A DNA stretch of 64,000 bases from Tubulanus polymorphus (taxonomy: Eukaryota > Animalia > Nemertea): NCBI RefSeq assembly GCF_964204645.1, contig NC_134027.1:16524485-16588484 (forward strand), written 5' to 3'. Position numbers and translations under genes: made by a program. The notes under the pieces are model-generated. The model had not been told where the DNA came from. It made no database searches and was given only the letters and a program-made list of their open reading frames with translations. Each line of letters starts with the position of its first letter. Position 1 is the stretch's first letter. Of the stretch, positions 2,666 to 61,100 are shown one piece after another.

Positions 2666-2907
2666 TACGGAAGTGATAAGGGGCCTCGAGATGTCGCGTT
2701 CCAACTCGACAAGTCGCCATATTTATGTCTTCAAATGACGGCTTGTCCCGTGGAAAATGAGCAAAAAAGCGCAATCTGTCGTGAAAACGTCACGATATGT
2801 AGACATATTCATGTAAACTTGACGCGATATATCGCGATATATCGACATAAATATGGCGACTTGTCGAGTTTGAACGCGACAACTCGAGGCCCTTTATCGC
2901 TTCCGTA
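2666..2907. mobile_element. MITE with TIRs TACGGAAG...CTTCCGTA, internally deleted
   Basis: About 65-bp TIR match; 7-bp TSD CTATATC at 2659-2665 and 2908-2914. Confidence 0.8.
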
Positions 2908-2992
2908 CTATATCAGATTAATCGACTTCAAAATAGGCGAAAGCATAAGTCTTTATTACGTTATTAATTGGCCTAATTATTCAAAAGCTAAT

Positions 2993-8202: not shown

Positions 8203-8287
8203 CTATATCAGATTATTCGACTTCAAAATAGGCGAAAGCATAAGTCTTTATTACGTTATTAATTGGCCTAATTATTCAAAAGCTAAT

Positions 8288-30004: not shown

Positions 30005-33000
30005 TTTAGATATCTTTATGATCTTTCATACGATATAACTCTCTAATACCGCCAAAAACTATAAATATGCTTAAAAAGCCCATATTCCAGATTCGACTTT
30101 ACTAAATCTATGGTCAGAGACAGGTTGAGACACGCGACCGCAATTAAGATGTTCAAAGTCGATTTATTAAAAAACGGGAACTGAGAGGTTTCTGCATTTT
30201 TTATATATTATAGAAATCTGTATGATCTTTCATACGATATAACTCTCTAATACCGCCAAAAACTATAAATATGATTAAAGAGCCCATCTTCCAGATTCGA
30301 CTTATCTAATTCTATTGTCAGAGACGTGTCACAGACACGCGACCGCAATTAAGATGTTCAAAGTTAATTTATTAAAAAACGGGAACTGAGAGGTTTCTGC
30401 ATTTTTTATATATTATAGAAATCTGTATGATCTTTCATACGATATAACTCGCTAATACCGCCAAAAACTATAAATATGTTTAAAAAGCCCATATTCCAGA
30501 TTCGACTTATCTAATTCTATTGTCAGAGACGTGTCACAGACACGCGACCGCAATTAAGATGTTCAAAGTTAATTTATTAAAAAACAGGAACTGAGAGGTT
30601 TCTGCATTTTTTATATATTATAGAAATCTGTATGATCTTTCATACGATATAACTCGCTAATACCGCCAAAAACTATAAATATGTTTAAAAAGCCCATATT
30701 CCAGATTCGACTTATCTAATTCTATTGTCAGAGACGTGTCACAGACACGCGACCGCAATTAAGATGTTCAAAGTTAATTTATTAAAAAACGGGAACTGAG
30801 AGGTTTCTGCATTTTTTATATATTATAGAAATCTGTATGATCTTTCATACGATATAACTCGCTAATACCGCCAAAAACTATAAATATGTTTAAAAAGCCC
30901 ATATTCCAGATTCGACTTATCTAATTCTATTGTCAGAGACGTGTCACAGACACGCGACCGCAATTAAGATGTTCAAAGTTAATTTATTAAAAAACGGGAA
31001 CTGAGAGTTTTCTGCATTTTTTATATATTATAGAAATCTTTATGATCTTTCATACGATATAACTCTCTAATACCGCCAAAAACTATAAATATGTTTAAAA
31101 AGCCCATATTCCAGATTCGACTTATCTTATTCTATTGTCAGAGACGTGTCAGAGACAAGCGACCGCAATTAAGATGTTCAAAGTTAATTTATTAAAAAAC
31201 GGGAACTGAGAGTTTTCTGCATTTTTTATATATTATAGAAATCTGTATGATCTTTCATACGATATAACTCGCTAATACCGCCAAAAACTATAAATATGTT
31301 TAAAAAGCCCATATTCCAGATTCGACTTATCTAATTCTATTGTCAGAGACGTGTCACAGACACGCGACCGCAATTAAGATGTTCAAAGTTAATTTATTAA
31401 AAAACAGGAACTGAGAGGTTTCTGCATTTTTTATATATTATAGAAATCTGTATGATCTTTCATACGATATAACTCGCTAATACCGCCAAAAACTATAAAT
31501 ATGTTTAAAAAGCCCATATTCCAGATTCGACTTATCTAATTCTATTGTCAGAGACGTGTCAGAGACAAGCGACCGCAATTAAGATGTTCAAAGTTAATTT
31601 ATTAAAAAACGGGAACTGAGAGTTTTCTGCATTTTTTATATATTATAGAAATCTTTATGATCTTTCAAACGATATAACTCTCTAATACCGCCAAAAACTA
31701 TAAATATGTTTAAAAAGCCCATATTCCAGATTCGACTTATCTAATTCTATTGTCAGAGACGTGTCAGAGACAAGCGACCGCAATTAAGATGTTCAAAGTT
31801 AATTTATTAAAAAACGGGAACTGAGAGTTTTCTGCATTTTTTATATGTTCTAGATATCTTCATGATCTTTCAAATGATATAACTCGCTAATACCGCCAAA
31901 AACTATAAATATGATTAAAGAGCCCATATTCCAGATTCGACTTATCTAATTCTATTGTCAGAGACGTGTCACAGACACGCGACCGCAATTAAGATGTTCA
32001 AAGTTAATTTATTAAAAAACGGGAACTGAGAGGTTTCTGCATTTTTTATATGTTATAGAAATCTGTATGATCTTTCATACGATATAACTCGCTAATACCG
32101 CCAAAAACTATAAATATGTTTAAGAAACCCATATTCCAGATTCGACTTATCTAATTCTATTGTCAGAGACGTGTCAGAGACAAGCGACCGCAATTAAGAT
32201 GTTCAAAGTTAATTTATTAAAAAACGGGAACTGAGAGGTTTCTGCATTTTTTATATATTATAGAAATCTTCATGATCTTTCAAATGATATAACTTTCTAA
32301 TACCGCCAAAAACTATAAATATGATTAAAAAGCCCATATTCCAGATTCGACTTATCTAATTCTGTTGTCAGAGACGTGTCAGAGACAAGCGACCGCAATT
32401 AAGATGTTCAAAGTTAATTTATTAAAAAACGGGAACTGAGAGTTTTCTGCATTTTTTATATGTTCTAGAAATCTGTATGATCTTTCATACGATATAACTT
32501 TCTAATACCGCCAAAAACTATAAATATGTTTAAAAAGCCCATATTCCAGATTCGACTTATCTAATTCTATTGTCAGAGACGTGTCAGAGACAAGCGACCG
32601 CAATTAAGATGTTCAAAGTCAATTTATTAAAAAGCGGGAACTGAGAGGTTTCTGCATTTTTTATATATTATAGAAATCTTTATGATCTTTCATACGATAT
32701 AACTCTCTAATACCGCCAAAACCTATAAATGCGTTTAAAAAGCCCATCTTCCAGATTCGACTTATCTAATTCTATTGTCAGAGACGTGTCACAGACAAGC
32801 GACCGCAATTTAGATATTCAAAGTTAATTTATTAAAAAATGGGAACTGAGAGGTTTCTGTATTTTTGATATGTTCTAGAAATCTTCATGACCTTTCAAAT
32901 GATATAACTTTCTAATACCGCCAAAAAATATAAATATGCTTAAAGAGCCCATTTTCCAGATTCGACTTATCTAATTCTGTTGTCGGAGACGTGTCAGAGA

Positions 33001-33170
33001 CAAGCGACCGCAATTAAGATGTTCAAAGTCGATTTATTCAAAAACGGGAACTGAGAGTTCTCTGGATTTTTTATATTCTCTAGATATCTTCATGACCTCT
33101 CAAATTGTATAATTCTCTAATACCGCCAAAAACTATAAATATGTTAAAAATGCCCATATTCCAGATTCGA
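30005..33170. repeat. 205-bp tandem array (about 15 copies)
   Basis: AGCCCATATTCCAGATTCGAC recurs at 30486, 30691, 30896 and onward; edge monomers are more diverged. Confidence 0.95.
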
Positions 33171-33355
33171 TCTTCCATTTTTCTTCCCATTTTTTATACA
33201 TTATCATCATCTTATGATCTTTCGATTGACATAACTCACTAATACGTTGCTAGTAATTGCTCGTGTGCGGGGGGCCTTTATACATTGAAAAAGAGCAGCT
33301 ACAATGTATTACAGAACCCACCAGAAAATGTTTTGAATTTGGAATTATTCATATT

Positions 33356-34670: not shown

Positions 34671-35958
34671 ATTTATTATTCCAGAGAATAACCCTATTGA
34701 CGTGCTATTTAAGTGATCCAAACCCGTGCATAAGGGTTACCCTGGTTTTGAATTATATCGTTGCTGTTTTCTGTGCGGCCAAGTCTTCCTTCAAAAGTTA
34801 TGAAAAATTGTTATTGAATAATTGTCTTTAAAACAATCCCGTGCTGCAATGAGTTCAAATCGAGAATACATTAATATGCATACATATTCTGTGGAATATA
34901 CAATCATAGATTTTTCCCTGGTGTAATGGTATTCGCCATTTCAGCAGGGTAATGACACAAGTTTGCATTTTAAGTATTGCCGGCAGTGAGACACGTACGG
35001 ATAATCGGAAATGAGTAATCTGAATCTGGTAGATCTGAATAAAGTGATAGCTTCACGATAGCTCGGTATGTACGGTAGGAAATATAGAGTATTGATGGTA
35101 TTGATATAGAGGTTGAAGCCCGCGGCCGAATAAAGTAATATATTCTTTTATTTTGATACCTCGTCGACATAACAGCTTTTCTCCGCTATATCTCTTCGGC
35201 GTGTTTAGTTTAGGCCAACGATGCCTCGGTACACTAAAGATTTATCTTAGTAAATACTCGGTTAATTCGGTAAAGAAAAATAGGTATTGTTATACTAACT
35301 CCTTGAAACCCGCAGCCAAATTACTGGTAGTAATAAATTAATTTGTACTCGATTTGATTCTCATGACGAGGAGAAACTCGCAGCTGATCCCCGGAACGAC
35401 GATGTAGTAACACACGTCGATTCGTCGATGTTTACGGCTCGACAGTGCTTTTAAAATATAAAGTAGTAAATTTCCAGTGTATCGGTAATATGATTTGATG
35501 AGGAAAATGGGCTATTGTTAAAATCACTGTTTGAAGACCTCGACTGAATTTGAAGTCTCCGGCAATAAATTAGTTCATTTATACTTGAATTGATAATCGA
35601 AGTGACAGTCGGCCTGCGGGTTGATTTCGGGATGACGACTCGAAAAACATGTCGCCCCATTGAATGGGGCTAAATTTTCGATGTTTACGGCCCGACAGCG
35701 CTTTTGTAACGATGATTCGTGAAAAAACACGCGGGCTATTTGTAGATCTCAGTGAGCTGAACGATATTATATGGATTGTATATGAAACAGCGGTAAGGTA
35801 ACAAAGCCTATGTTCTTTTGGTAAAAATAGTGTGGAAGAAAATAATAATAATAATAATCACGCGGATATCAATAGGGTTTTCTGTGAAATAACAGAAAAC
35901 CCTAATAATAATCACGCGGATATCAATAGGGTTTTCTGTGAAATAACAGAAAACCCTA

Positions 35959-36160
35959 ATTAAATAATGATTCTAAAATAAAAGATTATAATACATCAGA
36001 AAATAATAGAACTGATAATGGTGCCGTACGGCACCCACACGGTGTTATTCAACATGATATAATTAAACTAAATGATAATAATAAATCCCATGAAAATACT
36101 AAATTAGCTATAACTTGTATAGGAATTGTAATCGGAGGAATATTATATTTTAGATTTTAA
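35959..36160 (+). CDS. C-terminal 66 aa of the split viral gene, with hydrophobic tail
   Basis: Joined to 1287 it reads ...ENIK-LNNDSKIKDYNTSENNRTDNGAVRHPHGVIQHDIIKLNDNNKSHENTKLAITCIGIVIGGILYFRF*; homologous to 61101-61198 plus 63599-63724. Confidence 0.85.
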
Positions 36161-37862: not shown

Positions 37863-39110
37863 ATGAGTGGGAGTTATATCAATCCTTCTAAGAATCATAG
37901 AATATCTAATGCTATTAAAGCAGAAAGATCACATCATATAATTACTCATAATCCTTCAAATATTAATCCCGATGAAACTTTATATGTTAGAATTCCTAGA
38001 TTAACACAAAATACTTTTTATGTTCCAAATAGTATTTATTTATCAGCCGATATAAAAGTAATCGGTAATAATAATAATTATGTTGTTGATAATGTTGGAA
38101 GATATTTGATTAAAAAGTTAACAATAAAGATTGGTCCGGAAACAGTTTTCTCATTAGATGATTATAATTTATTTATGCATTATAAAGATTTATGGTTAAC
38201 TAAAGAAAATAGAAATAATATGATATTTCAAGGCATCCAATCAGAAAACCAAAATAAATTAAGATCAGAAGCTAATAGCGCAATATTAACTAATGCTGTA
38301 GATAAATTGATAAAAAGTATATATGGAAGCAAATATAAAATTCCATTAGATTTTGAATTGATAAATAATAATGCACCTTTATATAAATACGCAATCCAAG
38401 AAGATATTATATTTGAGATAACATTTGCTCCTGTAAATGAAATTGTATTATCTAGCGTTGTTAAAGATATGAGTTATAAATTATCGAAGATATGTTTAGA
38501 ATATGATACAGTAACTGATGAAAATATTTCAAGTATAATTCAAACTAAATACAATCAAGGATTTTCATTATTATATGATTATATTGATAAATTTAAAACC
38601 GTAACTATTAATGCAAATGATGAAATTATTAATGAGAATATTAACTTCCCAAGAAGATCTATTAAAGGCATATTAAAATTTTTTACCATTGCAACATATA
38701 CTAATGGCGCAATAAATGTTGATAATTATTATAATCCTGAAATAACAAAAGTAGAAATAACTATCGAAGGAATAGCAAATAAAATATTTTGTCAAGGAAT
38801 GAGAATGATTGATCAATGGCCAGAAATTAGAAAACATTTTATGAATGAAAAAGTAAAATCATTTGAAAATTGTAACATTAATCAAATTGATTATTATACC
38901 GGTAATAAATATGCATTATGGTTAGATTTTAGAACAACAGAGGATAATTCATTTCATGGTTCTGGAAAAAAACTACAGAACACTAAAGATGGAATACAAT
39001 TATTCATGACAAAGAATAAAGGAATCAAAAATTTTAAAATGCACATTTATATTATATCTGACGCGCAATTAAATATTATAAATTCACAATTAGATAGTGT
39101 TATGTATTAA
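37863..39110 (+). CDS. Putative double jelly-roll major capsid protein (415 aa)
   Basis: Beta-rich pattern typical of Polinton/PLV capsids (LYVRIP, LIKKLTIKIG, YKIPLDF, ITKVEITIEG, YALWLDF); suitable size; context with ATPase and integrase. Confidence 0.75.
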   Translation: MSGSYINPSKNHRISNAIKAERSHHIITHNPSNINPDETLYVRIPRLTQNTFYVPNSIYLSADIKVIGNNNNYVVDNVGRYLIKKLTIKIGPETVFSLDDYNLFMHYKDLWLTKENRNNMIFQGIQSENQNKLRSEANSAILTNAVDKLIKSIYGSKYKIPLDFELINNNAPLYKYAIQEDIIFEITFAPVNEIVLSSVVKDMSYKLSKICLEYDTVTDENISSIIQTKYNQGFSLLYDYIDKFKTVTINANDEIINENINFPRRSIKGILKFFTIATYTNGAINVDNYYNPEITKVEITIEGIANKIFCQGMRMIDQWPEIRKHFMNEKVKSFENCNINQIDYYTGNKYALWLDFRTTEDNSFHGSGKKLQNTKDGIQLFMTKNKGIKNFKMHIYIISDAQLNIINSQLDSVMY

Positions 39111-39142: not shown

Positions 39143-39901
39143 ATGGAAGGAGGTAAAGTATATAAACATATTCCATACATCGATACACATGAAAATAATG
39201 ATGGTTTATATTATGTAATACCTTGTAATATAGCTTTGATATTTGATCGTATTTTCAAAATTTATCAAACTAAACTAATAGAAATCGATAATAATAAAAG
39301 TGAAGTTGTTGATAATTTAAATAATGTAATTGATAATAATGTAATACCTACTACAGTAATACCTACTACAGTAATACCTACTACATCTAATAATGATAAG
39401 ATTGAACCTGATATCAAAACCAAAAAGACAAATGAAAAATATTGTGATGTATGTAAGAAATATATATCATATAAAAATTGGGCATCACATAAGAAATCAA
39501 ATAAACATATAGAAAAAGAAAAGAATAATAATGATAATAATATATCTGATAATAATATAATAGATAATATCATAGATAATGTTAATACAATTGAAACAAA
39601 TGATACCATAGATAATATAACAGATAATGTTAATACAATTGAAACAAATGATACCATAGATAATATAACAGATAATGTTGATACAATTGAAACTAATGAT
39701 AATGAAACAATTGATGATTCTAAAAAACATTGTAACATTTGTAATTTAGATATTTCTAAAAGTAATTTTTCTAAACATAAAAAATCTCAAGCGCATATCG
39801 AAAATGAAAAGAAATTAGAAGAAATAAAATGTGCCAATATTGTAATAAGAAAATTGAACTTGTTGATGAAAATACTCATTATAAATCAAAGTTACATCTA
39901 A
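39143..39901 (+). CDS. C2H2 (U1/matrin-like) zinc-finger protein with internal repeats
   Basis: YCDVCKK...HKKSNKH and HCNICNL...HKKSQAH; 3x15-bp (VIPTT) and about 3x48-bp repeats. Confidence 0.75.
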   Translation: MEGGKVYKHIPYIDTHENNDGLYYVIPCNIALIFDRIFKIYQTKLIEIDNNKSEVVDNLNNVIDNNVIPTTVIPTTVIPTTSNNDKIEPDIKTKKTNEKYCDVCKKYISYKNWASHKKSNKHIEKEKNNNDNNISDNNIIDNIIDNVNTIETNDTIDNITDNVNTIETNDTIDNITDNVDTIETNDNETIDDSKKHCNICNLDISKSNFSKHKKSQAHIENEKKLEEIKCANIVIRKLNLLMKILIINQSYI

Positions 39902-40302
39902 TTAATGTTTATAAAATGGTGAGTATGTTACCATTGTTAAATAACGCAGAGAAATATATCAAATATTTTAATCCTAAAACTAACCAATATTATATATTCT
40001 ATAAGTTGTTATTTGATAAATTATTAGCTTATGCAGAAGATAATCCTAAACAAATATATAAATTATTATATTTTAGAAAAATAGATTTAAGTTATCTAAT
40101 ACAAAATTTTGGAAATCATTTTGATTTTGATTATGATGATTTTGATGAATACTTAGAAAAATTAAGAGAAAAAGCTAATATACCTACTAATTATTATGTT
40201 AAGATGACTCAATTAAAATTAATAAATCTACCTAAGACTTTTGATGAATTATATATAAACAGAGATGATTTTATAAATATAATAGAAACAAAATTAGAAT
40301 AA
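39829..40302 (+). CDS. Zinc-finger-containing ORF, probably the frameshifted continuation of 39143
   Basis: Starts with CQYCNKK...HYKSKLH, overlapping the upstream ORF in another frame. Confidence 0.6.
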   Translation: MCQYCNKKIELVDENTHYKSKLHLINVYKMVSMLPLLNNAEKYIKYFNPKTNQYYIFYKLLFDKLLAYAEDNPKQIYKLLYFRKIDLSYLIQNFGNHFDFDYDDFDEYLEKLREKANIPTNYYVKMTQLKLINLPKTFDELYINRDDFINIIETKLE

Positions 40303-40735
40303 TTATTATAAAACTAATTTATATATCTATATACAAGACGTACGTAAAAATCTTGGTAAGAATCCAAGAATCCAAGAAATCTTACTTTCTTGGTAAGAAT
40401 CTTACTTTCTTACTCGTACGTCTAGTACATAGATATATAATTTAGTTTTCATAAAAATTAAAAACATAAAATTATTAATCTAAGTATAGAAATAGTTATA
40501 ATATAATCTATTTTTATTTTTATAAAGAGAAAACATATAATTTATTCATTTTTATAATTTAAATTTAGAATAATTATTATAAAACTAATTTATATATCTA
40601 TATACTAGACGTACGAGTAAGAAAGTAAGAATTCTTACCAAGATTCTTACTTTCTTACTTTCTTGGCAAGAATCTTACTTTCTTACTCGTACGTCTAGTA
40701 CATAGATATATAAATTAGTTTCTATAATATTCCAA
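40295..40735. repeat. Two tandem ~165-bp imperfect palindromes between convergent gene blocks
   Basis: Arms AAACTAATTTATATATCTATATACTAGACGTACGAGTAAGAAAGTAAGA and its near reverse complement; present twice (about 40295-40460 and 40565-40735). Confidence 0.85.
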
Positions 40736-40746
40736 ATTATAAATAG

Positions 40747-41358
40747 TTATTTTATAAATTTATATTCATACGGAAATTGTAGTCTCAGTAATAATTTTGA
40801 ACCTTTATTATTCTTTAATTTATTCATATATTCATCGTGTAATTCAGTAGGTATAATTTGATTTTCTTCCAATGATTGTTGCATAGATTTTTTATCTTTG
40901 TTATAAAATAAAACTAGAAATCTTATATTCTCCCTAAAGTCTTTAACAATTGAATTATATTTTTGATTTAAAACCCATGTTGTTATCCCGAAATGTCTCC
41001 CAGAGAAAGCTAGATAACATAACTCACTTTCTCTCACTTTTGAATCATGTAAATTTGCGCAATCATCTATAATGAATAATGTATTTGACCCTTTATAAGT
41101 ATCAATTGCTATTTTTATACAATTATCTAAATTTTCTTTTACTGTTTTAGGATCTAATATAATAAACTTTTTCATCTTAACTATATCTCTATTATATGTT
41201 TTATTCATTTCATAAGTAGGACAGAATAATATTATATTATCAAAATGATTCTTATAAATAGTTTCTAACAAGTCTAATATGAAATGTGTTTTACCACAAT
41301 TGGTTACTCCAGTTATTAACATATTATGAGGTTCAAATATAAATAAATCTTTATTCAT
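40747..41358 (-). CDS. FtsK/HerA-superfamily (A32-like) genome packaging ATPase
   Basis: Walker A GVTNCGKT, Walker B LFIIDD, arginine finger SGRH, conserved Q in WVLNQ. Confidence 0.92.
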   Translation of the reverse strand: MNKDLFIFEPHNMLITGVTNCGKTHFILDLLETIYKNHFDNIILFCPTYEMNKTYNRDIVKMKKFIILDPKTVKENLDNCIKIAIDTYKGSNTLFIIDDCANLHDSKVRESELCYLAFSGRHFGITTWVLNQKYNSIVKDFRENIRFLVLFYNKDKKSMQQSLEENQIIPTELHDEYMNKLKNNKGSKLLLRLQFPYEYKFIK

Positions 41359-42475
41359 TTATTCTTTTAATTTTACTAGATAAAATCCATTCATTAAATT
41401 TATCATCATATCCTTTATATTTCACCAAAGAATACTTTTTTCCTTTAAGAGTTTTTGTTTTCAATACTTTTTCTATTTTGTATTCTATTTCATCTGGATT
41501 TGGTACAAGTGATAATTCTTGTTCATAGAAATAACCTAATATTTCTTCATCTTTTAGATCTTCTAATTTATAAACAAAAGGTTTAGTTAATATTATCTTT
41601 TTAATTTTAAATATTTCTTCTGTAAAATTTGGAGTATAACCTTTATAAAAGGTTTTTCTATATTTAGATATTCTTACGTGTTGTCCTATTTTAAATTTAG
41701 GTTCACCGAAATCGTGTGTAACAAACGCACCATATAAATTATTCCAAACTATTTCCGAATTATCTTCTTTTCTAGCTTGTATAGGTTTCATATTTATAGA
41801 ACTATGTTTAGAATTATTATAACCTTTCACTAAATCATCTAATATATTTATAGACTCATCGATATATTTATATGTTTCATTAGCAGTAAAATATTTCCAC
41901 ATTCTAGTTTTCAATGTTTTATTAAATCTTTCTATAATAGATGCTTTTTTGTCTGAGTGTGTTGAAAAATATTTTACATCGTTATCAGATAATAGTTTTT
42001 TAAAATGTTTGTTATAAAATTCCTTACCTTCATCAAATTGTATCTTATCTGGAATAGCTTCTTTAAATATAGATTTAAAAGCATTTGTCACTTCTATACC
42101 AGTTTTATTTTTGATCGGAATTGACCATGCGTATCTACCGAATATGTCTATAACATTCAGTATCCAGAAATATCCTTTGTTGTATTCTTCTAAGTTCTTC
42201 ATATCAATTAAATCTGCTTGCCATTGTTGATCGATATATGAAACCATAACATTCCTTGTTAAATAAGTTTCATCCATTTTCCTGTGGATTTGATATGTTG
42301 GTTGATTTTGTAACCATGATTTCAATTCACTATATTTTATACCACCATGTGGGTGCCGTACGGCACCATCACTATTATCAGATTTAATTTTATTCCATAA
42401 TTCTGAAACGTTAGAATATGATACTTCACTCTCTGGGTTATAATATAAATCTCTTAAACATTGTTCTTTTTTCAT
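41351..42475 (-). CDS. Retroviral-type (rve) DDE integrase with C-terminal chromodomain
   Basis: WQADLIDM, IQFDEGKEF, IERFNKTLK, YNNSKHSSI; chromo YKIEKVLK...LVKYKGYDDKFNEWI. Confidence 0.95.
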   Translation of the reverse strand: MKKEQCLRDLYYNPESEVSYSNVSELWNKIKSDNSDGAVRHPHGGIKYSELKSWLQNQPTYQIHRKMDETYLTRNVMVSYIDQQWQADLIDMKNLEEYNKGYFWILNVIDIFGRYAWSIPIKNKTGIEVTNAFKSIFKEAIPDKIQFDEGKEFYNKHFKKLLSDNDVKYFSTHSDKKASIIERFNKTLKTRMWKYFTANETYKYIDESINILDDLVKGYNNSKHSSINMKPIQARKEDNSEIVWNNLYGAFVTHDFGEPKFKIGQHVRISKYRKTFYKGYTPNFTEEIFKIKKIILTKPFVYKLEDLKDEEILGYFYEQELSLVPNPDEIEYKIEKVLKTKTLKGKKYSLVKYKGYDDKFNEWILSSKIKRINE

Positions 42476-43694: not shown

Positions 43695-44360
43695 TCAACC
43701 ACTCATTAAAGACTCAACATATTGTTCATTATTTGGATCATTGTTCCATAATTCAATGAATTTCTTTGCTTTATCTAATTGATTCAAATATAACTGTATA
43801 TCTAGTTTATTAGATTTAATTATGTTTTCTTTCTTTTCAAGAGGTCTTAAATTCTTCCAGCACCAGATTAGCTTCTTATTATAATCATCACTCATGTCAA
43901 ATTTAGATATTGGTAACACGTGATCGATATGGTAATAATCCCCATAATTATCTATATTCATTTTATCATCGAATTGAAATATAATCCATGATTTGAGAAA
44001 TTCATCTGAACAACCCAACAAATTAGATAATGTTTCTGAATGTGTTTCTTTGTTGAATAATTGTGTTAATCTAGATCTTAAGCATTGTTTCAATCTAAAA
44101 TTAAGATCTGTTTGATATCTTCCTCTCATATATTCTGCCATATAATAATTATAATGTTCTATATTATCTTCTCGATATTGTTTGGTATATAGTTTAGTAC
44201 AAGTTTTACAGCAATATTGAAAACCATCTTTGCTAATCTTACGCTTACTAAATTCTGTTAATGATTTATCTAATTCACACTTAGAACACTTCTTGTAATA
44301 TATATTTATAACACCAGTGTTATTTGTAATATTGATAGTTTGTGGTTGTTCTGATTCCAT
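43695..44360 (-). CDS. Zn-ribbon plus HNH/endonuclease VII-like nuclease of the type seen in large DNA viruses
   Basis: KKCSKC...CCKTC, then LLGCS...YHIDHVLP...WKNLRPLEKKENIIKSNK (His-Me finger pattern). Confidence 0.8.
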   Translation of the reverse strand: MESEQPQTINITNNTGVINIYYKKCSKCELDKSLTEFSKRKISKDGFQYCCKTCTKLYTKQYREDNIEHYNYYMAEYMRGRYQTDLNFRLKQCLRSRLTQLFNKETHSETLSNLLGCSDEFLKSWIIFQFDDKMNIDNYGDYYHIDHVLPISKFDMSDDYNKKLIWCWKNLRPLEKKENIIKSNKLDIQLYLNQLDKAKKFIELWNNDPNNEQYVESLMSG

Positions 44361-45239
44361 TTATTATACATATTTTTTTACTAAATTGGTTAATAATTTT
44401 AGAATCCTCTTCCATTTCTTCGACCAACGTCATCTTTTTTCATTCTTCGTTGCTTTTGATAAGTCGTTTCGGTTCCTTGATATCTAAATCATACCAGTTA
44501 CAATACCCGCGTCACATGCGGCCATTTATGGCCGGTTTTGCTTAATGCGTATGCGTTAATCATAATAGAAACGACTGAACATAAAAATTCACCAAACAGA
44601 TTTACACAATACATTATACAAGTTGTTCGGCCGTTTCTTCCAATACATCATTTGATTTCTATAAATACAATTTATAATTACAAACATTTTTTCAATTGCT
44701 GGTAAATATTTAACTATATCAACAAATGTTAAACTTAATCATTGGAGTCTTAATGTTTTTGAAATTCGTACATAGTTTCTTCGTCGATCTTTTGGCGATT
44801 CTATTGGTTTGATATCCATTGCTGTTGATTCCCCAGTCAGAAAGAGTATCTTGAGTTTCTCTATCGCTTCTTGAAGCGTATGATGTTTTATTAATCTAAA
44901 AGATCTTAGTGGTAACTCTAGCTATCTGAAAGATATACTAAATACACTTAAATATATCTAAAGGTTTCATATTTAATAGCCTTAATAACTACAAAAAACA
45001 GTACTTACATTTAGATTTATAATTGTAAACTATAAACTCCTAATTTCGTTTCGAGAGATAGAATATCCTGAGCACAATATTACAGCGTATATTCATTTCT
45101 TGCCACGTCATCTGGTTCCGGTTCTAGAGTGTTCTCTCTCTGCACGTTTGTAATAATGAGTCATAAGTCTCGGCGTCATAGTAACAGCTGTGAATTTATA
45201 GATTTATTCCATAGCTCTTTGCATGGAATGTATATAGGC

Positions 45240-45476
45240 TCAAATAGAATCATGTTCTAGTATAAACATCGGATCCTCAACGTATTGTTCATTATTTGGA
45301 TCATTATTCCATAATTCAATAAATTTCTTTCCCTTTGTTAACTGTTCTGAATATAACTGTAAATATTCTAGTTTCAATTTATTCTCTGAATGTGTTTTAG
45401 TTTTATTGTGTCTTGCTTTTTGGGATTTATCTAAATTGATATTACACGTTGGACAGTAGTACTTATTTGCTTCCAT
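45240..45476 (-). CDS. Small C2H2 zinc-finger ORF next to the terminus
   Basis: YCPTCN...HNKTKTH; C-terminus KKFIELWNNDPNNEQYVE duplicates the HNH C-terminus. Confidence 0.55.
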   Translation of the reverse strand: MEANKYYCPTCNINLDKSQKARHNKTKTHSENKLKLEYLQLYSEQLTKGKKFIELWNNDPNNEQYVEDPMFILEHDSI

Positions 45477-45556
45477 TTTAATACTAAATTTTTTATTAAA
45501 ATTGATTTTAGAAGTTCAATGATTTAAATGTTATTCATTTATATGAATATTTTAAG

Positions 45557-45922
45557 AGTAATAGGGGTAATGGGCTTTCAAGCTAAAGGTTGAATGGTCG
45601 AGTTCATTAAAAACAAATATTAAAAGTAATTTAAAACTATAATATATTTTCATAACCGTGTGTATTTCAGTTGAACAATATTTGTGTATTGTAAATAAAT
45701 CAATTGGTCGCGGAGCGGAGCGGTAGCGAAGTGGAGCGACCAATTGATTTAATACAATATGCTTTTTAGATTATTGATATCTTAGAATAAATATTTAGTT
45801 TTTAATATAAAATGTGCACGGTTATGAAAATATATTATAGTTTTTAATTACTTTTAATGTTTTGTTTTTTAATGAGCTCGACCGTTCGACCTTTGATCTG
45901 AAAGCCCATTACCCCTATTACT
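45557..45922. repeat. 366-bp terminal fold-back palindrome of viral copy 1
   Basis: AGTAATAGGGGTAATGGGCTTTCA...TGAAAGCCCATTACCCCTATTACT; centre AATCAATTGGTCGC-(GC-rich loop)-GCGACCAATTGATT. Confidence 0.9.
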
Positions 45923-46339
45923 GATGGCTACAACGCTACACCTCACGGGGGTATTTCAGATATGACTCCCGAAGAGGCCGGAGAATCCCGAAATGAAGAA
46001 AGGTTACTGTTCGAAAATATCGGCAAATCCGAACCCCCTAAGAGCCCGTTCAAGCCAGGCGACAGCGTAAGGAAAAAGCTGAAAAGACCCGTGTTCAAAA
46101 AGGGTTACAAACAGATATGGGGCCAAACAGTCCACTCCCTCGCGTCTGTGGAAGGCTTAAAAGGGGTCCTCGATAATGGAGAATCAGCTAGGTTGGACGA
46201 TCTGCAACTAGTGATACCTCCAGCTGAAGAGAAGACGACGGTAGACGCTGTGTCCGTAGCCGACAAAGAGCACAAGATCAGAGCAGACTATCAAGCACAA
46301 GGAGGGTTTGTCACCCGAAGCGGTAATGCCCTCGAATAG
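45923..46339 (+). pseudogene. C-terminal fragment of Maverick integrase
   Basis: Reads DGYNATPHGGISDMTPEEA...FKPGDSVR...FKKGYKQIW directly from the junction with the hairpin; homologous to the end of the 41351-42475 integrase core. Confidence 0.8.
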
Positions 46340-46356
46340 CAGGTACAGCCTGCGAT

Positions 46357-49300
46357 CTAAAGCTCGTTGAGCAATTCCTCGACGTACTCGTCCAACGGAG
46401 TCCTGGCATTTTTGTGGCCGTAAGCGAGCGTAGCGATACCATCATCGGCGATCCACCTCTTACTGTCGAAGGGACTGAGACTCTGCTTTGTCATACGCAG
46501 GCCGTACATTTTGTGACCCTCGCTTCTCAGCATATTCATTCCGTGCTGGAAGACCTTCTTGTGGAACAGACATTCCTTGTATTGCTCGTGGCGGATCTGT
46601 TTCTTCACCACGTTCTTTTTCACACCCTTGGCCTTCTTGATGTTAGTCTGATCGGCTTTTAAGATGCTGTACATCTTCGGTCTGAGCCCGACGTACTCTT
46701 GGATGGGTGTACCTGCGCACTCGTCTTTCATCTTACCTAGAACCTTCTTGTTGACGTTGCTATGCAGCGGGTGATTTCCCTGGTAATCGCTAGTATCGTA
46801 ATGGTCGTTGTTCGATTCCATGTCTTCGTAGATGTCTTCCGTCTCAATCTCTAGCAGAAGACTGTCGGTGTCAGTGTACAGCAATCGAGTACGATCGCCG
46901 TATACCTGTTTCATGTGGTTATAGTAGAAGTCGTACATCAGCAGCTTGCTGAGATCGAGCACAGACATCCCTACGTAAACGGGCCTATTCAGGTACAGAT
47001 TAGTCTTGTACATGTGCATCGCGGCAAGATCGTCGTCAAACACCTTGGACCTGGCGAAGTTCGGCTTGGCTATCAACTTCCTCAACCTGTCTTCCTCGTT
47101 TGATCTGACAAGCTTCACGTCTACACTGCGTCTAAGATTTTCCATGGTCTTGCCGAATACGGAGTTATTCATCAGCTTGTACAGGTCCTTCTCGAAGTCG
47201 CTGGCTGCTAGCTTTCTTAGTTTTGTGTTCAGTCTTATATACGGCTCCATCCACGGCGATTGGTCGAATTCGAGGGCGCGATGAATCTTTGTGAGCTTCA
47301 GTCCTAGCTCCAGGTACAACTTAAGGTTCCTGTAATGAACGACGTATCTCTCCTTGTTGCGGAGATTAGGCACCAGTTTTTCCGTTTCGGTCGAACCCCC
47401 CAGTCTTCCTAACAGATCTTGCTGGTACTGCGACATCCAAGCTTCTTGAACCTTAAGCCTTTCCGGTGCCAGTGGGTACTCGTTGTGCGAGTCGTGCAGC
47501 CCCCTGGGGTATTCCAAGTCTACCTCTAGAATGTATTCTTTCTCTGCGTCATCCGGATGTCCCGATACATTGAGTTCTTGCGGCCTTTCAACCCACTCGA
47601 ATCCGCCCGTTGGCAGGTGTTGCGACATAGCCCAGCCATATAAGTTATTCGCGTCAAGGTACATTATGTGTGTCGTCGGCTTCTTTGGATCGTGACCGGG
47701 AACCAAAGGATTGTTGGCCCTGCAGTGGCGTTTGCTGACCATGGAAATGCCACCTCGCAGACCCTTTTCGATGAATAAGAACTGGTCGTAGTCCATTAAG
47801 AGCTCTAGTTTAACCTCTGTTTTCTTAAGTAGAGCGTCCCAGCTAAGACCCGGGCTGGTGTAATACTGTGCGGGATCTAGGCCGTACTGCTTCACGCAAA
47901 TGGACCTGAAATTCTCGAATACATCGGCGAGAAGAACCGTATCGGTCCTCAGATAGAGGTCGTGGTAGTCACCCATAGTACGGCAGTGAAACGTGGCCCA
48001 TACCTTTTGCGCGTGGGCAGTCTTGATCGCTGATTCCCGCCTCTGATAGCTTGCTGTAGAAGGCTCCTTTTGACGGACGCTGGGTATCCTGGAATTTCTC
48101 CCAACTGTCCATGTACTCGTATGGGTATACGCCCTTTCTCAGTAACAGCTCTAGTTTTTCGGGTACAGGTTCGGCCGCGGCTGTCAGCGTAAAGCTCCCC
48201 TTAGCGGCTGACGCAACCAGTCTGTCAAGTGGGGCCAGCAAGAACTGCACAGAATCGATGAACCGCAAATTACCGAGACTGAATGAGATGTACTTCTCCA
48301 TGTTATTCGGGATGCACGTTATCTTTCCTTCAGTCCGACCGATTGCCTGCATGATGAGATGAGAGTCGTAACCGCGGAGGTTGTGAAACACGACCGGTAT
48401 AGGCGTGTATTTCGCGGACAGTCGCAACTTGAGATTGCACTCGTTGTGGGCCGGGCCCCGGTAGTCACCCGTTATGTGATCGTGATCCCTGACCCGATCC
48501 TCATAGAGTGGTTTGTCGCATACGTAGCAATTTTCCGCTTCCTCGAATGACGTTTGCTCCTCCCGAGTAGTTGCCATAGGCGCGGGATGGGCGAGCACGC
48601 CCTTGATTTTCTCCTCTTCCCCTTGGAGGTGCTGAAGGAATACCGCCGCAGCGTCTTGGCCTCTATAAAGGACGGGTGGTTCGTGTTTACCGTCGCTTCT
48701 CACTACCACGTACGAGAACCCGCACGCCTCGTGAAGTTGAGTCTTTTCGCTACCTTTCTGGTTCGGGTTCCTTCCGGGGCCCTCGAATTTGGTTGTAATG
48801 GCTTCGAAGTCGGCATAGATGACGAACGGAATCTTGAGCTGCTTGTGATGATTGGTGAACCGCAGCACTTTGTCCTCCTCCGAGGGCATACTGGTACGCA
48901 TCGGACGTCCGTTGACTCCTCGACAATCTGACCTGTGCCTCTCCAGGAGATCTTCTCTGGTGAAACAATGAAGGCACCGCTCGCAGAAGTGTTTCCTCCC
49001 TTCAAACTTACTCTGGGTGAACAACAGGCGATTGAGGTCTTTGATCCATGTGTAATGCTGTTTCTCACCGCTCTCTACGAGTAGCAAGTTAATTCTAGGA
49101 ATGGGGGCCGGGCCATCGCTGATATGCAGTGGGTACACGCCTTTGTCATACCCGAACACGTTGATTGCCAGTCCGTTTTGTCGTTCGACCATAGGAATCT
49201 GACTCAATGGTGTTGGTGAATCGATGCCTGTAAAGTCATGCTGGTCCCAGTGATTCGCATACTTCGATGGCCTTTGGGGGTCTCTCTCTACGGGGTATTT

Positions 49301-50022
49301 CGAGGCCAGTATTGACCACTTAAGGCAGTGATCATCTCTATTTTTGACATTTACGACGGCGTGTCTTCTCTTGACTGCGACGGGGAGGTCGATATAAGAA
49401 CCGCCTCTCAACGGTTGATATCTGGCGATATTCAGGAATAGTTCGACTACCCTCTCTACAGCCCATCCGGAACCTTCTCTCATATAATTCTCAATACTCT
49501 GTAAAACCCTAGCTTCAGCTTTACCCAACTCCTCATTTATGTTAGCCGCCTTCGATAGAACGTATTGCTTTGACCAGAAGGGCGGCTCGACGTGCGCATA
49601 GGTGCCGTCGTTCTTCTCCTTCCTCAACGAAACCCGCAGAGCAATGGAGAATTTTACACCCTTAAGGTCAATGATCTCCTCGACTAACTTCTCCCTTACA
49701 TTGTTCCGCTGCTCGCGCAAGAATATCGACGGATCAGTCACATCGGTGGCTGGTCTCAAAACCCAGGCCCTCAGATAATTTTGGATAGCAAACGGGGCCC
49801 TATGAAACGCGGGTTCTGGCTCCGGTAGAATCTCATCCCAAATCGGATCATCGTCCGGTATAATGTTTTCTACCTTGTACTTGGGTTTTCTGGGGGCGGG
49901 TTTTGGCTTTCTCGGAGCAGGCGTCGGCCTGCGGGTCAACTGGTTGATGGCATCGGCATATGTTGCGACAGTAATCTGCCCGTCTCGAAGTAAATCGGTC
50001 AGACTTTTTACCGCGCTGTCCA
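46357..50022 (-). pseudogene. polB: Protein-primed family B DNA polymerase with one frameshift near 48020
   Basis: Exonuclease motifs IYADFE, FHNLRGYD; inserted endonuclease VII-like CYVC...DHDHITG...AHNECN; polymerase motifs YLDANNLYG, KLMNNSVFGK, YTDTDS. Two overlapping ORFs (47969-50098 and 46357-47976). Confidence 0.93.
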
Positions 50023-50400
50023 TTTTGCTTTCGCATATATGAGAAATGTATGTCTCTAAATGGAAATTTTTGGGGGGCCCCTCGACAGAAGTCGGCACAC
50101 GCCGAGTGTTGGCCGGGCCTGGCCACGTCCAAGGGACATGACTCTGGGTGCCTGCCGATGTCTCGGTTGTTTGCCGGCTTCTGCATCAGCATAGAACTTT
50201 CTAGGCTATTTCGCAATCAGTGACAATCAGGTCGCACCGCTGATAGCGTCAGCTTAAGAGGTGAATTCCAGGTCAGAGCGTTTCACATACTTGTATATAC
50301 CGTAAATATCTATGTAAATAACACTTTGTTGTAGGTGCATTATAGCGGTTGGTTTATAGGGGCTGGAGGGGGTTTGCCGGCCCCTTGGCGTGTTTTCCAT

Positions 50401-50715
50401 GGTCCACAGGGGTTCTTCTTAGGGTATTTAGGTGGAGAAAAAGCTTTGAGGGGGTACATAGTACACCGGGGTAAGGATGGGCTGCGCCAGAACCGCGGTC
50501 CACAGGGGTTGTCTTCTTAGGGTATTTAGGTGGAGATAAAGCTTTGAGAGGGTACACGGTATACCGGGGTAAGGATGGGCTGCGCCAGAACCGCGGTCCA
50601 CAGGGGTTGTCTTCTTAGGGTATTTAGGTGGAGATAAAGCTTTGAGAGGGTACACGGTATACCGGGGTAAGGGTGGGCTGCGCCAGAACCGGGGTCGGGC
50701 TGCGCCAGAACCGCT
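50401..50715. repeat. About 3 copies of a ~97-bp subterminal repeat of the Maverick
   Basis: GGTCCACAGGGG at 50401, 50497 and 50595. Confidence 0.88.
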
Positions 50716-51567
50716 ATTTTGTATACTACTAATACATTACTGTTCCGTTTCTATATTAACTGTGGAAAAAAGACTCCGATATAGTAACCGTAGTACTATA
50801 GCGTCTATGAATAGCGAGCAAGTATCAGCTGAACATCAATGCGTTTTGCCGTACTATCGACGTTGCAGTACGCGCTTCGAGGAACTGCGGTGGATGACGT
50901 CATTCGTCCGTCCATGACGTACCTTGTTGTGTCTGGTAGCTGTTGCGTCACTTCGCGGTAAATTCTAAACTCAAACTGTGAACTGTTTTGTGCTTAACTT
51001 TCGACTGTTTAGTGTGCGGGGACAGCGGTCTCGAATGAACTTTTTTCCGATTGGGTATCCAGAACTTTAAATGCGGTTTTATGATAAACTATATCATGAA
51101 GTTTAATATGCGTTGTAGTGTCGAACTCTAAGAAATAGTTACTCGTTATAATGAATTGTTTACTAATGTTCTTTTTCAGGATTTGTTCTAGAGGTATCAG
51201 CGGGATATTCACGAGTTGGTTTAAATTCAAAATTTCGGGACGAAATTTAAACTGGATAGGGAGTGTTGATCCACAGGTAGATTTTCGTAGTAACTGAAAA
51301 TGTTTCGTTGTATTTAGAAATGTTCTTAATGTTGTTTCCGTATGCGTGGGGGTTACGTTAAAGCCGTCAGACAAGAACGTACTAGTAGTAAGAATTACGA
51401 AAGTTTTTGTTTGATGCTTTCATCTACCAACGCAAGCCATAAATCAGTCTATAAACAACAATTCTTTCTCGGTTCTTCTGCTGTGAGATCTGGCAAACAT
51501 TCAGAAAATCTTTATATAAAACTTTTAAATAGTTGGAACCATATTTGGTTTGGTCGGAACAATGGAG

Positions 51568-55500: not shown

Positions 55501-55899
55501 AAACAATTTGTCCAATTGCGACACCATTTTCGTCACCTGGCCGCGGTGACCACCTCTACTCTTCACCAGCCTAGACAGCTCCTCAGGTGTTTTCGTCATC
55601 CTGGTCACGGCACCAATTTATGTCGTAGAAAGTACAGACTAGCGAAGATTCGATACCCAAATACCAACAACGGAACCAGCAACGACCAGCGTATGATATG
55701 AAATGCACACAGATTTATTCCTTAACACGTATTTATACCCTGACACAATAACAAACAGTAACAATGATTTTGACCAGTACGGAGAGCATTCTGACTTAAC
55801 AATAGAGTTAATACACACTTTAAATTCAGCTTATGATAAGGATTATCAGTTTTACAACGAGGTTTATACACAGTTTATCGAACGATATTTCCAACAATC
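52503..55899 (-). mobile_element. Decayed, truncated BEL/Pao LTR retrotransposon
   Basis: Gag 55608-54312 (LPKLTLHKFYGD, zinc knuckles), protease LFDEGS (53193-53542), pre-RT IPHHAVVKES...IRIVY (52503-53006). tRNA-His-type PBS TGGTGCCGTGACCAG at 55601-55615. Partial LTR 55621-55899 cut by viral copy 2. Confidence 0.88.
53543..54302. mobile_element. MULE-like MITE (760 bp)
   Basis: Imperfect ~110-bp TIRs GCAAAAA...TTTTTGC; 9-bp TSD TTGATACAT (53534-53542 and 54303-54311). Removal rejoins Gag-protease as QSHVSINKSVLLKTA. Confidence 0.82.
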
Positions 55900-56020
55900 A
55901 GTAAATGGGAATAAGTTGTTTCAAGCCAAAGGTCGAAAGGTCGAAAAATAAATTCTCGCACACTCAATTTATTTTTCGACCTTTCGACCTTTAGCTTGAA
56001 ACAGCTTATTCCCATTTACT
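55900..56020. repeat. 121-bp terminal fold-back palindrome of viral copy 2
   Basis: 55-bp arms AGTAAATGGGAATAAG(T/C)TGTTTCAAGC(C/T)AAAGGTCGAAAGGTCGAAAAATAAATT with 2 mismatches; 11-nt loop CTCGCACACTC. Confidence 0.92.
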
Positions 56021-56079
56021 CTTAAAACATTAATCTAATAACTTCTAAAATCAATTTTAGTAAAAAATTTGATATTAAA

Positions 56080-56421
56080 ATGGAGAGTTAACAAATACAC
56101 AGTGAATTCTTAGATAGAATTAAAGATACTACAAATGCTAAATCTGTAGATTATAACTTTAAGAAGTTAACAGAATTAACAATTCATAAGAAATATTTAA
56201 TTACAAATATTGATACAGTTTCTAACAAATATGGAGATAAATTAGTTATCCTTTTAGAATATGAAGGATTAAAGGGAAATGAATATAAATTCAGAACATA
56301 TTTACCAGATAGATTTCATAGATTATCAAGTGAAGATTTAGAAGAATTATGTTCAGGTGATTTCTATTTCATATATAAAGGTAAGAATGAAAAAGGGCAC
56401 CATGAAAAAGATTTCGAATAA
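56080..56421 (+). pseudogene. Small terminal viral gene, frameshifted near its start (not in ORF track)
   Basis: Open from 56101: SEFLDRIKD...FKKLTELTIHKKYLITNIDTVSNKYGDKLVILL...FRTYLPDRF...FYFIYKG. Beta-rich; an OB-fold role is only a guess. Confidence 0.6.
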
Positions 56422-58220: not shown

Positions 58221-58651
58221 ATGGATGATAAAGTTGATAATATTGATATTATTCCTCATGATATAAATAAAACTAAATGAAAATTATATTTGGAAAAACA
58301 AATATTAGAATTTGAAAGTGACTTAAAGATAAAAAAGAAAAAATATTTAAAATCTAAAATTATATATTATTTTATTATTAGTGGATCAGTTACAATTAGT
58401 TCTGTAATAACATTTCTAGCATTATGCTCACCATTAACACCTTAAGCTATCTCAATTGGTGTGTAGGTTAAAGTTCAAGTGTTTTAACCGGAATAAGTTC
58501 AAAATTAGATATAAAAAGTAATAAAGAATAAATAAAATCTAATATAAAATAAAATAAATTAAAGAATACATTTGATTATATAATAAGTTTAAATGGTAAT
58601 ATAACAGTTGAAGAACAAGATAAATTATTAAAAGAATTAATTAATTATTAA
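58221..58651 (+). pseudogene. Two-TM viral protein, decayed
   Basis: MDDKVDNIDII... with in-frame stops; C-terminus NGNITVEEQDKLLKELINY matches window positions 1-60. Confidence 0.55.
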
Positions 58652-59831
58652 TTTTTTTATTATATAAATGGTAGATAGTTTTCCAAAAGCTTTCCAATAT
58701 AATAAATCAATTAAATATAATATTCCTGCAATAGATTTTAATAAAGATATTTCATATAGAAATGTAGTTTTAAATTCATTAATTAATTTCGATATTTATG
58801 TTACTGAAACTAATAATTTTAATGCAAAGATGGAAAATATATTTCAGGTATATTTAATTAATTTAAAAAAAATGAAAGATGAAAAACAATGGTTATTAAA
58901 ATCTAATATGAAGTATTGGCAGAACCAATTAAATTTTGCAGTTTATTGTGTAACAACAGGATGTGGAATTGGTTTAAATGATCATTTGAATAATTCTAAA
59001 TATAAATTAATTCAAAGTTCATTTAGATTCCATAAATACTTTCAAATAAGGTTAATATTAAATGAATTAGAGACACCTTTACCAGGATCTAGGTATTTTA
59101 AAGAATTAGATAATAATATTAATTTATCAAAGTTTTATAAAATTTGTAATGAATTTAATATAGACATAAATAATTCTGATTTAAGAACAAAAATTGGAAC
59201 AATAAGATCACTTCCTTGCCCTAAAAAAATTGTAAAAATATTGTGCACTTCCCATACCATCTAATAGTTTTTATAATATCTATAATAATAAATTAGGTTT
59301 TGGTAAAATATAAACTTTGGATTTAGAAACATTAAATTTCATTAAATTACCGAAATTTTATAATAATTTAAACAAGAAAATAATAATGGTTGGGTTTATT
59401 TTATTTTAGAAAATAGTGAAGGTTTTACTAAAGCTGGTATACAAAGAATAAATCAATCAATTAGAACTTATTTGATATGTATTCTAGGATCACAAGTTGA
59501 AACAAGATCCCCAATAATTGGAAATTTAAATACATCATTTGATCCACAAAAAAAATTTAAAGTTTTATTTGAAGATTCCATTCATAATGATAAAAATAGA
59601 TCAATTCCAGAAAATATAGTCAGGTACCAACATTATTTAGCTAAATCACATGTAAGATTAAATTATTGTATTGGTCCTAATTTATTAATTATTTCTGATC
59701 ATTTAATATAAAAAATGGGAAATATAATTGGTTATAATAATTTGATTAAAACTGCAACAATAAACAATAAGTTTGGGTTTAATGATATAAATAAAAAAAT
59801 TATCACTGCTCAAAAACTAATGGAAGGTGAA

Positions 59832-61100
59832 ACTAGGGGTCCAGGGACACCATGCCCACTTGGGAAGTGGTTCCAAATGCTCAACAATCTAACAATTTCA
59901 ATATTCAACGCCCCCTGGTGACCATATACAGAATCCAATGACCTTGAAACTCACCACAATCATAGAACATGTCAGCAGTTACGATTTTGTAATTGATTGT
60001 GATAACAAAATTTGCCTCGTTACCACTTTAATATGGAAATACTAAGTTATTCTACTATTCAACGCCCCCTGGTGACCATATTCAAAACCCATTGACCTTG
60101 AAACTCACCACAATCATAGAACATGTCACGAACTATAACTTTGTAATTGATCATGGTAACAAAATATGCCTAGGTACCAATATAATAAGGAAATACTAAG
60201 TTATTCTAATATTCAACGCCCCCTGGTGACCATATAGAATAACTAATGGCCTAAAAACTTGCCACAATCATAGATGATGTCATGAGCTACAACTTTGCAA
60301 TTGATTGTGGTTACAAAATATGCATTGATACGAATATAATATAGAAATACTAAGATAGTGCATTATTCAACGCCCCCTGGTTGCGATATACAAAAATCAA
60401 TGACCTTGAAATTCACCACAATCATAGAACACGTTATGAGCTACAACTTTCTAAATGATTGTGGTAAAAAAATACACTTAGGTATCAATATAATGTGGAA
60501 AAACTTTTTCCCACTTACGAATGAGTACTGCTGACACCAAGATGGCCGCCATTTGCGTCATAATTGGCTGATGAAAAATACCTGTCTGGTATAAAACATC
60601 CCTTTCCAAAGAATACCCATCACAAATTGCAATGAGAAATGATAACTCAGTAGGAAGCTACAGGACTCAGAATTTGGGCCAAAATTAACATTTTTGGGCA
60701 CTAAAAAGGTCATAGGACGGCCATCTTGAGTATACGACCCAATCTTTGTTATGCTGATTGGCCCTGGGGGAATTCACATATATCCGAAAGATCAAGGTAA
60801 TTGATCAAAGTGTCTTCAAAATTTCCCTCAAAAAGTTCAAAAATGTGTAAAAAGTGCTGATTTTGGCGAACAACAATGGCTGCCAGTCGGCCATCTTGAA
60901 TCTGACAGGGCCAGTTTTTGGGCTGAAGATGTGTCTAGGGTAGATACATGTGTAACCCAAATATCAAGACATTACCTTGAAGCGTCTTCAAAACTTCCCA
61001 AAATAACTGGATTCCATCTACGGACGGACAGACGAACGGACGGACGACGGACGAAAATTGAACGCAATAGCCCGCTGGGACTCAAGTCCCAAGTGGGCTA
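59832..61100 (-). mobile_element. HINE / pearl-like non-autonomous Helentron
   Basis: subTIR GCCCACTTGGGA and its inverse in terminal hairpin TAGCCCGCTGGGACTCAAGTCCCAAGTGGGCTA; (ACGG)n microsatellite near 61020-61053; four ~155-bp internal tandem repeats; A|A insertion without TSD. Confidence 0.88.

Follow-up and report, generated by a model that had tools for sequence, protein, structure and literature searches.

Terminal palindromes in a multi-copy Maverick/Polinton provirus family and their possible use as fold-back primers

How a polinton-type virus might replicate without a protein-primed polymerase (pPolB) is the question raised by a 64,000-nucleotide stretch of Tubulanus polymorphus DNA (here called the window, to which all coordinates refer unless stated otherwise), in which AT-rich proviral copies end in long palindromes. 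A preliminary description had taken these palindromes for viral termini and had suggested that hairpin self-priming could replace the terminal-protein primer and account for the missing pPolB. The AT-rich element is a multi-copy Maverick/Polinton provirus family. Copy 1 extends over about 35.9-45.9 kb (GC 0.20-0.29) and has lost its left part, copy 2 starts at 55900, is degraded and interrupted and has its right end outside the window, and a third fragment of the family (1-1294, with a 405-aa ORF) is 92% identical to copy 2 (58592-59832). No single copy within the window has both ends present; the palindromes are terminal in a Maverick-type virus, as had been suggested, and they sit on two different truncated copies rather than closing one genome.

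The Maverick hallmarks found in copy 1 are a jelly-roll capsid, an A32-type packaging ATPase and an rve integrase; terminal inverted repeats (TIRs) are seen when two copies of the family are compared. The double jelly-roll capsid protein (37863-39110, plus strand) has 767 homologues, and its structural model (pLDDT 82) matches iridovirus and PBCV-1 capsids in Foldseek (E 2e-16, TM 0.6). Encoded on the minus strand are the packaging ATPase (40747-41358, 203 aa; Pfam Pox_A32, E 2.2e-12), the integrase with its chromodomain (41351-42475, 374 aa; Pfam rve, E 2.4e-8, and Chromo, E 8.8e-5) and an HNH/endonuclease VII-like nuclease (43695-44360, 221 aa; PHROG 1035, E 3e-19, and an Atlas lead). From its sequence matches the last of these would be a weak candidate, at the level of a lead, for a nickase or resolvase; a homologue also adjoins pPolB in a related locus (L008), so the nuclease is not specific to hairpin ends. 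The adjacent minus-strand region (44361-45239) is degraded, with stops in all frames and no family match. An adenain-like maturation protease had no Pfam or PHROG match among the scanned ORFs, which come from incomplete copies.

Copy 1 also contains internal palindromes. Nested ones (40290-40744; 49-50-bp arms, 96-98% paired) lie just downstream of the ATPase gene, between converging gene blocks, and hairpins stand at the equivalent place in four related loci (L001, L002, L003 and L005), where they possibly form a two-way terminator. Read depth of 41-87 over 39485-40818 marks the version at 40290-40744 as rare among copies. A GC-rich palindromic motif of 31-38 bp occurs twice inside copy 1 (36018-36055 and 42332-42369), and read joints suggest a related stretch at about 42710.

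The palindrome at the right end of copy 1 (45557-45922) is 366 bp long and bounded by AGTA...TACT; inward of its outer arms of ~112 bp the middle is asymmetric, with a nested stem whose GC-rich tip (45709-45740) has iterated GGAGC-like units and is a putative binding site. The predicted fold of 45557-45922 has a free energy of -112.8 kcal/mol (z -27.7), and none of 100 shuffles was as good. The palindrome of copy 2, its inferred left end (55900-56020), is 121 bp long and consists of two 55-bp arms, paired at 53 of 55 positions, and an 11-nt loop (55955-55965); here the fold reaches -55.5 kcal/mol (z -19.0), again with no shuffle as good (0 of 200). At the termini the ungapped hairpin score is 36-49, as compared with 12-14 in six shuffles of the element. 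When up to 7 mismatches in 27 positions are allowed, the window contains the block TTTCAAG..GGTCGA exactly four times, one in each arm, and a 26-bp core is common to all four arms despite the divergence of the copies, in which palindrome length itself differs (366 versus 121 bp). The self-complementarity of both ends, their AGTA...TACT bounds and the sequence block common to them, all of which had been claimed beforehand, are thereby borne out. The palindrome of copy 1 had been drawn from 45459 to 45922; its size of 366 bp was right, and its start is moved to 45557, since 45459-45556 comprises subterminal DNA and the start of the terminal ORF.

Palindromes of this family come in several variants that have their outer core in common. 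In many reads the asymmetric middle contains an insertion of 38 nt (window 45680 and 45866), and ~600 reads (562-623) match just the outer ~57 bp. A joint between 45566 and 55965 was seen in 44 reads.

On their inner sides the palindromes of both copies give way, at one and the same base, to a subterminal sequence that the copies share. The subterminal part of the terminal inverted repeat of copy 1 (45472-45556) matches that of copy 2 (56021-56084) in inverted orientation, with 71% identity over 132 columns when 45472-45601 is aligned with 56084-55976, in agreement with the inverted homology described previously. TIRs are present in the AT-rich family on the comparison of two copies, and read depth rises from 45363 outward. 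The same agreement was not obtained for the terminal genes: the proposed correspondence between MEANKY and a frameshifted MEVNKY falls away, as the copy-2 gene aligns to its relatives in the unshifted ATG frame and is unrelated to the zinc-finger ORF of copy 1. That right terminal ORF (45240-45476, minus strand, 78 aa) is a chimera in which a zinc-finger start is joined to a second copy of the 43695 ORF's tail, and no candidate emerged from a search, in itself weak evidence, for longer proteins that open with this zinc finger. In the left terminal gene of copy 2 (56080-56421, plus strand; 33% to a 114-aa ORF of L003) an early stop breaks the frame. The model of a relative of this gene (pLDDT 66) is an OB-like barrel, for which the best Foldseek match has E 5e-3, VIA Z values reach 6.3 and the Atlas lead is a phi29-type SSB (0.87); no Foldseek match had E <= 0.001 and no Z was >= 8. 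The product is probably, at the level of a modelling lead, an ssDNA-binding protein, which would fit strand displacement under either priming model.

Whether the palindromes are true ends was assessed with public reads and contigs from 4 of the 10 runs listed, 16,324 reads of the WGS run X6 being placed on the element. Depth in X6 falls from 3,786 to 72 at 45922, where 1,860 of the 16,324 reads run past the junction into unlike flanks, and 14 contigs of run X4 leave the element at the same position; the agreement among the flanks is just 0.34, which points to many insertion sites. The identification of 55900 as a left end is based on composition, homology and collinearity with L003, and this position is absent from the six loose ends listed (there are 1,992 further ones). 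ACAATC, which had been predicted as the target-site duplication (TSD) of copy 2, is doubtful because its first three bases also end a BEL-type LTR (55896).

These data bear directly on the reading that takes the palindromes for fold-back MITEs or mini-Mavericks in their own right, inserted by chance at the ends of the element, and they leave it very improbable. Such a reading would draw on the AGTA...TACT motif that bounds each palindrome on both sides, on the excess of depth in the outermost bin (3,786) over that of the subterminal DNA, and on the reads that match the outer core alone. Against these stand the absence of a duplication flanking either palindrome at 4, 5, 6 or 8 bp, the identical junction base with the same subterminal sequence in both copies, and the absence of the terminal motif from anywhere else in the 64 kb. 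Depth, moreover, persists inward across 45557, with ~2,000-2,400 at 45465-45566, or 72-86% of the mean arm depth. Stand-alone palindromes with TSDs of their own, the observation named beforehand as contrary to viral termini, were thus not what was found: given continuous depth into viral DNA and no duplication of their own, the MITE reading is rejected for most copies and is largely refuted; a fraction of the palindromes may be solo.

Immediately outside copy 1 lies a GC-rich Maverick fragment (45923-50730, GC 0.50) that comprises the 3' half of an integrase gene and a plain AGTAGTA end, which is not palindromic and forms no hairpin. The frame opening at 45923, which we take to be integrase-like from a motif, corresponds to the same part of L014; the window does not contain the gene's 5' half. 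Copy 1 is nested in the integrase gene of this GC-rich Maverick. A split family-B polymerase occupies two ORFs of the fragment (46357-50023; PHROG DNA polymerase, E 1.6e-14), for which Pfam gave no name and a PDB sequence search returned only alpha-repeat proteins. As a polymerase belonging to copy 1 itself this gene was rejected on the grounds of its GC content (0.50 versus 0.2-0.3), the sharp depth step and the interrupted integrase frame. The AT-rich family is abundant enough for study in one host, and its polymerase-bearing, plain-ended neighbour provides an internal control. The GC-rich fragment also has ~97-bp tandem repeats (50401-50696), and in L014, a GC-rich relative, a small ORF (L014:2448-2861) presumably resembles Bcl-2-family proteins, to judge by a motif.

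Several other features of the window were recorded. A truncated minus-strand BEL/Pao element has a likely 5' LTR (TG...CA; 55600-55896), which ends 3 bp from the terminus of copy 2, and we take this element to have a tRNA primer-binding site, on the strength of a motif. An 1,811-aa BEL/Pao ORF (23024-28459) encodes RT, peptidase A17 and integrase domains, and an ORF with PHD and ubiquitin-hydrolase-like domains is found at 29032-29772, probably in another mobile element. The BEL/Pao elements, together with the numerous capsid relatives on megabase contigs, would suit an invertebrate animal as host. A 789-bp repeat (35063-35851), 98.6% identical to 6840-7628, adjoins the truncated left side of copy 1 and is followed by a short tandem with small palindromes (35866-35965). 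Longer arrays are a 205-bp tandem of about 15 copies (30128-33297) and a 31-bp satellite with higher-order repeats (2866-22000), the long ORFs of which are probably repeat artefacts.

Is a replicase then really missing? Neither a polymerase, a helicase nor a Rep was found in the AT-rich copies of the window by Pfam, PHROG or ORF comparison. Among 41 related loci, pPolB-like matches occur in three (L008, L014 and L024), and in a capsid tree of 22 of the 41 (loci with a frameshifted, short or distant capsid match being excluded) these fall in three separate clades. The clade that holds the copy-1 capsid (support 100/100) has five loci, none with a pPolB, as compared with 3 of the 36 other loci; a helicase or Rep was likewise not found in these five relatives, which are up to 11.5 kb long and contain no ends. 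The longest, L003 (11.5 kb), matches the element in left-arm and core gene order, and neither tblastn nor the scanned ORFs yielded a replicase in it. L003, a close AT-rich relative, does have a deoxynucleoside kinase gene (L003:10340-10981; Pfam dNK, E 1.7e-31), which is accessory to DNA synthesis, in an element in which no polymerase was seen. The terminal motif occurs in none of the 41 loci, and blastn of both ends matched no locus; scans of viral contigs with the capsid, the integrase and the terminal motif found nothing, and a scan of genome contigs gave just two short, distant ones.

The reads limit how far this absence can be extended. At 44566, 768 reads depart from the copy-1 sequence and at 45363 another 738 (742 in a second count) join it, so many copies hold other DNA near the right end. 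The copy-1 version of the segment is itself common, with a depth of about 320-1,020 across 44700-45362. Family-wide loss of a replicase therefore does not follow from the copies within the window, and the alternative segment may encode one; the pPolB described as missing is missing from the AT-rich copies here and from the five close loci, and the claim does not reach the family as a whole. Two further leads were tried in this region. The 395 reads loose behind 45364 are not taken to prove a deletion, as they are better accounted for by the 43695 ORF, whose tail is paralogous. An HUH Rep suspected at 44361-45243 from motifs was not supported: three frames gave no Pfam or PHROG match, tblastn found nothing in the loci, and the sole phmmer match, obtained for one frame, is a repetitive spurious translation.

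The arms of the palindromes bear marks that could be left by hairpin copying. Within the outermost 46 columns there are nine positions that differ from copy to copy and yet mirror each other in the two arms of each copy; arms of one copy agree at 40/46 and 44/46 positions, as compared with 31-34/46 for arms of different copies. Such concordance also follows from gene conversion or from a one-off snap-back fill-in. A strand-switch joint at the borders of the 11-nt loop (55955/55965) was seen in 40 reads with 27 different starts in the joint table; the loop, if inverted, mismatches at 11 of 11 positions, and the joint hints, from that table, at inversion of the loop relative to the subterminal DNA (flip/flop), a signal that library fold-back artefacts or inter-arm recombination could also give. 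Similar joints exist in the 366-bp form, and 150-nt reads cannot link them to subterminal DNA. In the available text of PMC11575299, flip/flop ends mark the rolling-hairpin replication of AAV. The outermost bases also differ from those expected of protein priming, which in its sliding- or jumping-back form requires terminal reiteration (PMC4974454, as far as its available text goes): the AT-rich ends read AGTAATA and AGTAAAT, with neither (AGT)2 nor (AG)3, whereas the GC-rich neighbour keeps AGTAGTA, and (AGT)2 is the commonest end of vertebrate Mavericks in the accessible part of PMC8097293.

Taken together, the palindromic ends, the concordance of the arms, the flip/flop hint, the loss of (AGT)2 and the lack of pPolB in the copies support hairpin priming, and we consider it plausible, if somewhat short of probable, that the palindromes serve as fold-back primers, by means of which polymerases of the host or of a helper copy the viral DNA with no need of a terminal protein. 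A genome that is single-stranded, or frayed at its end, would fold its 3' palindrome and be extended; nicking close to the inner AGTA boundary would transfer the hairpin, which would be recopied; and recopying would rewrite each arm from the other and invert the loop, giving flip/flop. The extended duplex end, 5'-AGTA...TACT-3', would be the substrate inserted by the rve integrase. For the nicking enzyme the HNH/endonuclease VII-like protein might be proposed as a weak candidate, and the probable SSB would suit strand displacement. The earlier suggestion of self-priming in place of the terminal protein thus retains true ends, arm concordance and the flip/flop hint in its favour, and has against it that no Rep-like nickase was found. 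Other observations, too, count against hairpin priming: the terminal motif, which turned up in none of the 41 loci and in no viral contig, the five close relatives all stopping short of a terminus; the internal palindromes at 40290-40744, by which the element may simply be prone to palindrome formation; the phi29-type SSB lead, since a phi29-type SSB is a partner of protein-primed replication; and the divergent DNA at 44566-45363, since it adjoins the end where relatives keep the polymerase. In a stronger version of hairpin priming, which we regard as possible but doubtful, this animal lineage dropped every replicase, exchanged protein priming for rolling-hairpin replication of the parvovirus type with flip/flop and host polymerases, uses its own HNH/endonuclease VII-like nuclease as resolver, and outgrew its polymerase-bearing relative in the same genome; the family would then stand, still living, midway between Mavericks and viruses with hairpin ends.

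Two other explanations have to be weighed against fold-back priming. The element could be a non-autonomous Maverick that uses the protein-primed polymerase of a helper Maverick in trans, its palindromes being homogenised by-products of end repair (by snap-back and fill-in or by template switching, and inherited thereafter) rather than primers. The same genome contains a Maverick that bears a polymerase, with copy 1 inside it, the distribution of pPolB-bearing relatives over three capsid clades makes the absence look like loss, the ends still start with AGT, the lead for the terminal gene, though weak, is a phi29-type SSB, the two palindromes differ in length, and accidental annealing is the alternative offered by the Halocafeteria authors in the available part of their preprint (10.64898/2026.07.28.741278). 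What such a helper leaves unaccounted for is the disappearance of the (AGT)2 reiteration from both termini when the neighbour kept it, and the retention of the 26-bp core in four of four arms across diverged copies. The AT-rich reads are also more than ten times as numerous as those of the single helper for which depth was measured (a capsid-gene depth of ~880 versus 37-82 on the GC-rich polymerase), a comparison in which diverged helpers are not counted. We hold a helper of this type to be a possibility, on balance a doubtful one. The other explanation, which we rate as unlikely, is that intact members encode a replicase (a pPolB or an SF1/SF3 helicase-primase-polymerase fusion) in the part of the right arm that is missing from copy 1, so that the missing polymerase would be a trait of degraded copies and the palindromes might still be origins. 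The reads that exit the copy-1 sequence at 44566 and enter at 45363 speak for it, as do the chimeric terminal ORF of copy 1, the terminal position of the polymerase gene in the GC-rich neighbour and the frequent replacement of pPolB by helicase-based replicases in group 2 Mavericks (10.64898/2026.06.19.733378, in its available text). It is weakened by the commonness of copy 1's own version of the segment, by L003, which shares the left-arm and core gene order and in which no replicase was found, and by the alternative segment, which may be short.

Fold-back priming as a concept is not new here, having already been published for protist viruses. In the part of the Halocafeteria preprint available (10.64898/2026.07.28.741278), virophages and PLVs are described as having palindromes within their TIRs, beside the TSDs, preferentially together with non-pPolB genes; its authors propose hairpin priming and ask that terminal palindromes be compared globally with replication genes. 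An animal Maverick with palindromic ends was not found in the literature covered, whose scope leaves most subscription journals, Repbase and preprint supplements aside, and the string 'palindrom' does not occur in the accessible text of the coral, adintovirus, vertebrate-Maverick and cryptophyte papers (PMC11131425, PMC8502044, PMC8097293 and PMC12220804). The present family seems to extend the link between palindromes and the absence of pPolB to an animal Maverick lineage.

With the Maverick-Polintons and adintoviruses (Polintoviricetes) the element shares a jelly-roll capsid, an A32 ATPase, an rve-chromodomain integrase and inverted AGT termini, and its capsid relatives are linked to pPolB. 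It differs in that pPolB, helicase and protease were not detected in the copies here, in the lack of (AGT)2 and in that each end is itself a long palindrome. By resemblance rather than by reference profiles it is most likely closest to the group 2 Maverick-Polintons, in which helicase fusions often stand in place of pPolB according to the available text of 10.64898/2026.06.19.733378. Judged on the copies within the window, it is a polymerase-less variant of the Maverick lineage and not a classical (group 1) Maverick.

The endogenous virophages of Halocafeteria seosinensis (subtypes 1, 2, 5 and 6) and the PLV of subtype 4, as described in what is available of that preprint, likewise have palindromes at the extreme ends of their TIRs and an rve integrase, and there, too, palindromes go with the absence of pPolB. 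Theirs is a protist host, the palindromes are 52 nt long in the subtype drawn as compared with 121-366 bp here, and they carry alternative replicases, whereas none was found here; the available account reports no flip/flop test, and the capsid of the present element is that of an animal Maverick lineage. Parvovirus and AAV ITRs resemble the ends described here in their palindromes of at least 120 bp beside a shared unique subterminal stretch, in flip/flop, of which there is a hint here, and in GGAGC-like iterations, present here in one tip (PMC11575299, available text). Unlike those viruses, the element has no Rep/NS1 (HUH plus SF3) that we could find, and combines jelly-roll dsDNA-virus genes with a retroviral-type integrase.

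Poxvirus hairpin telomeres are resolved by a junction nuclease, which leaves covalently closed half-palindromes. The likeness to these telomeres, which are mentioned in the accessible part of PMC11296320, consists in a related capsid and ATPase lineage, an AT-rich imperfect hairpin and an endonuclease VII-like gene; the difference is that the integrated ends here contain the full palindrome. If fold-back priming is true, the family would document that Mavericks can change their way of priming, and a path towards hairpin-ended genomes in the lineage that contains the poxviruses.
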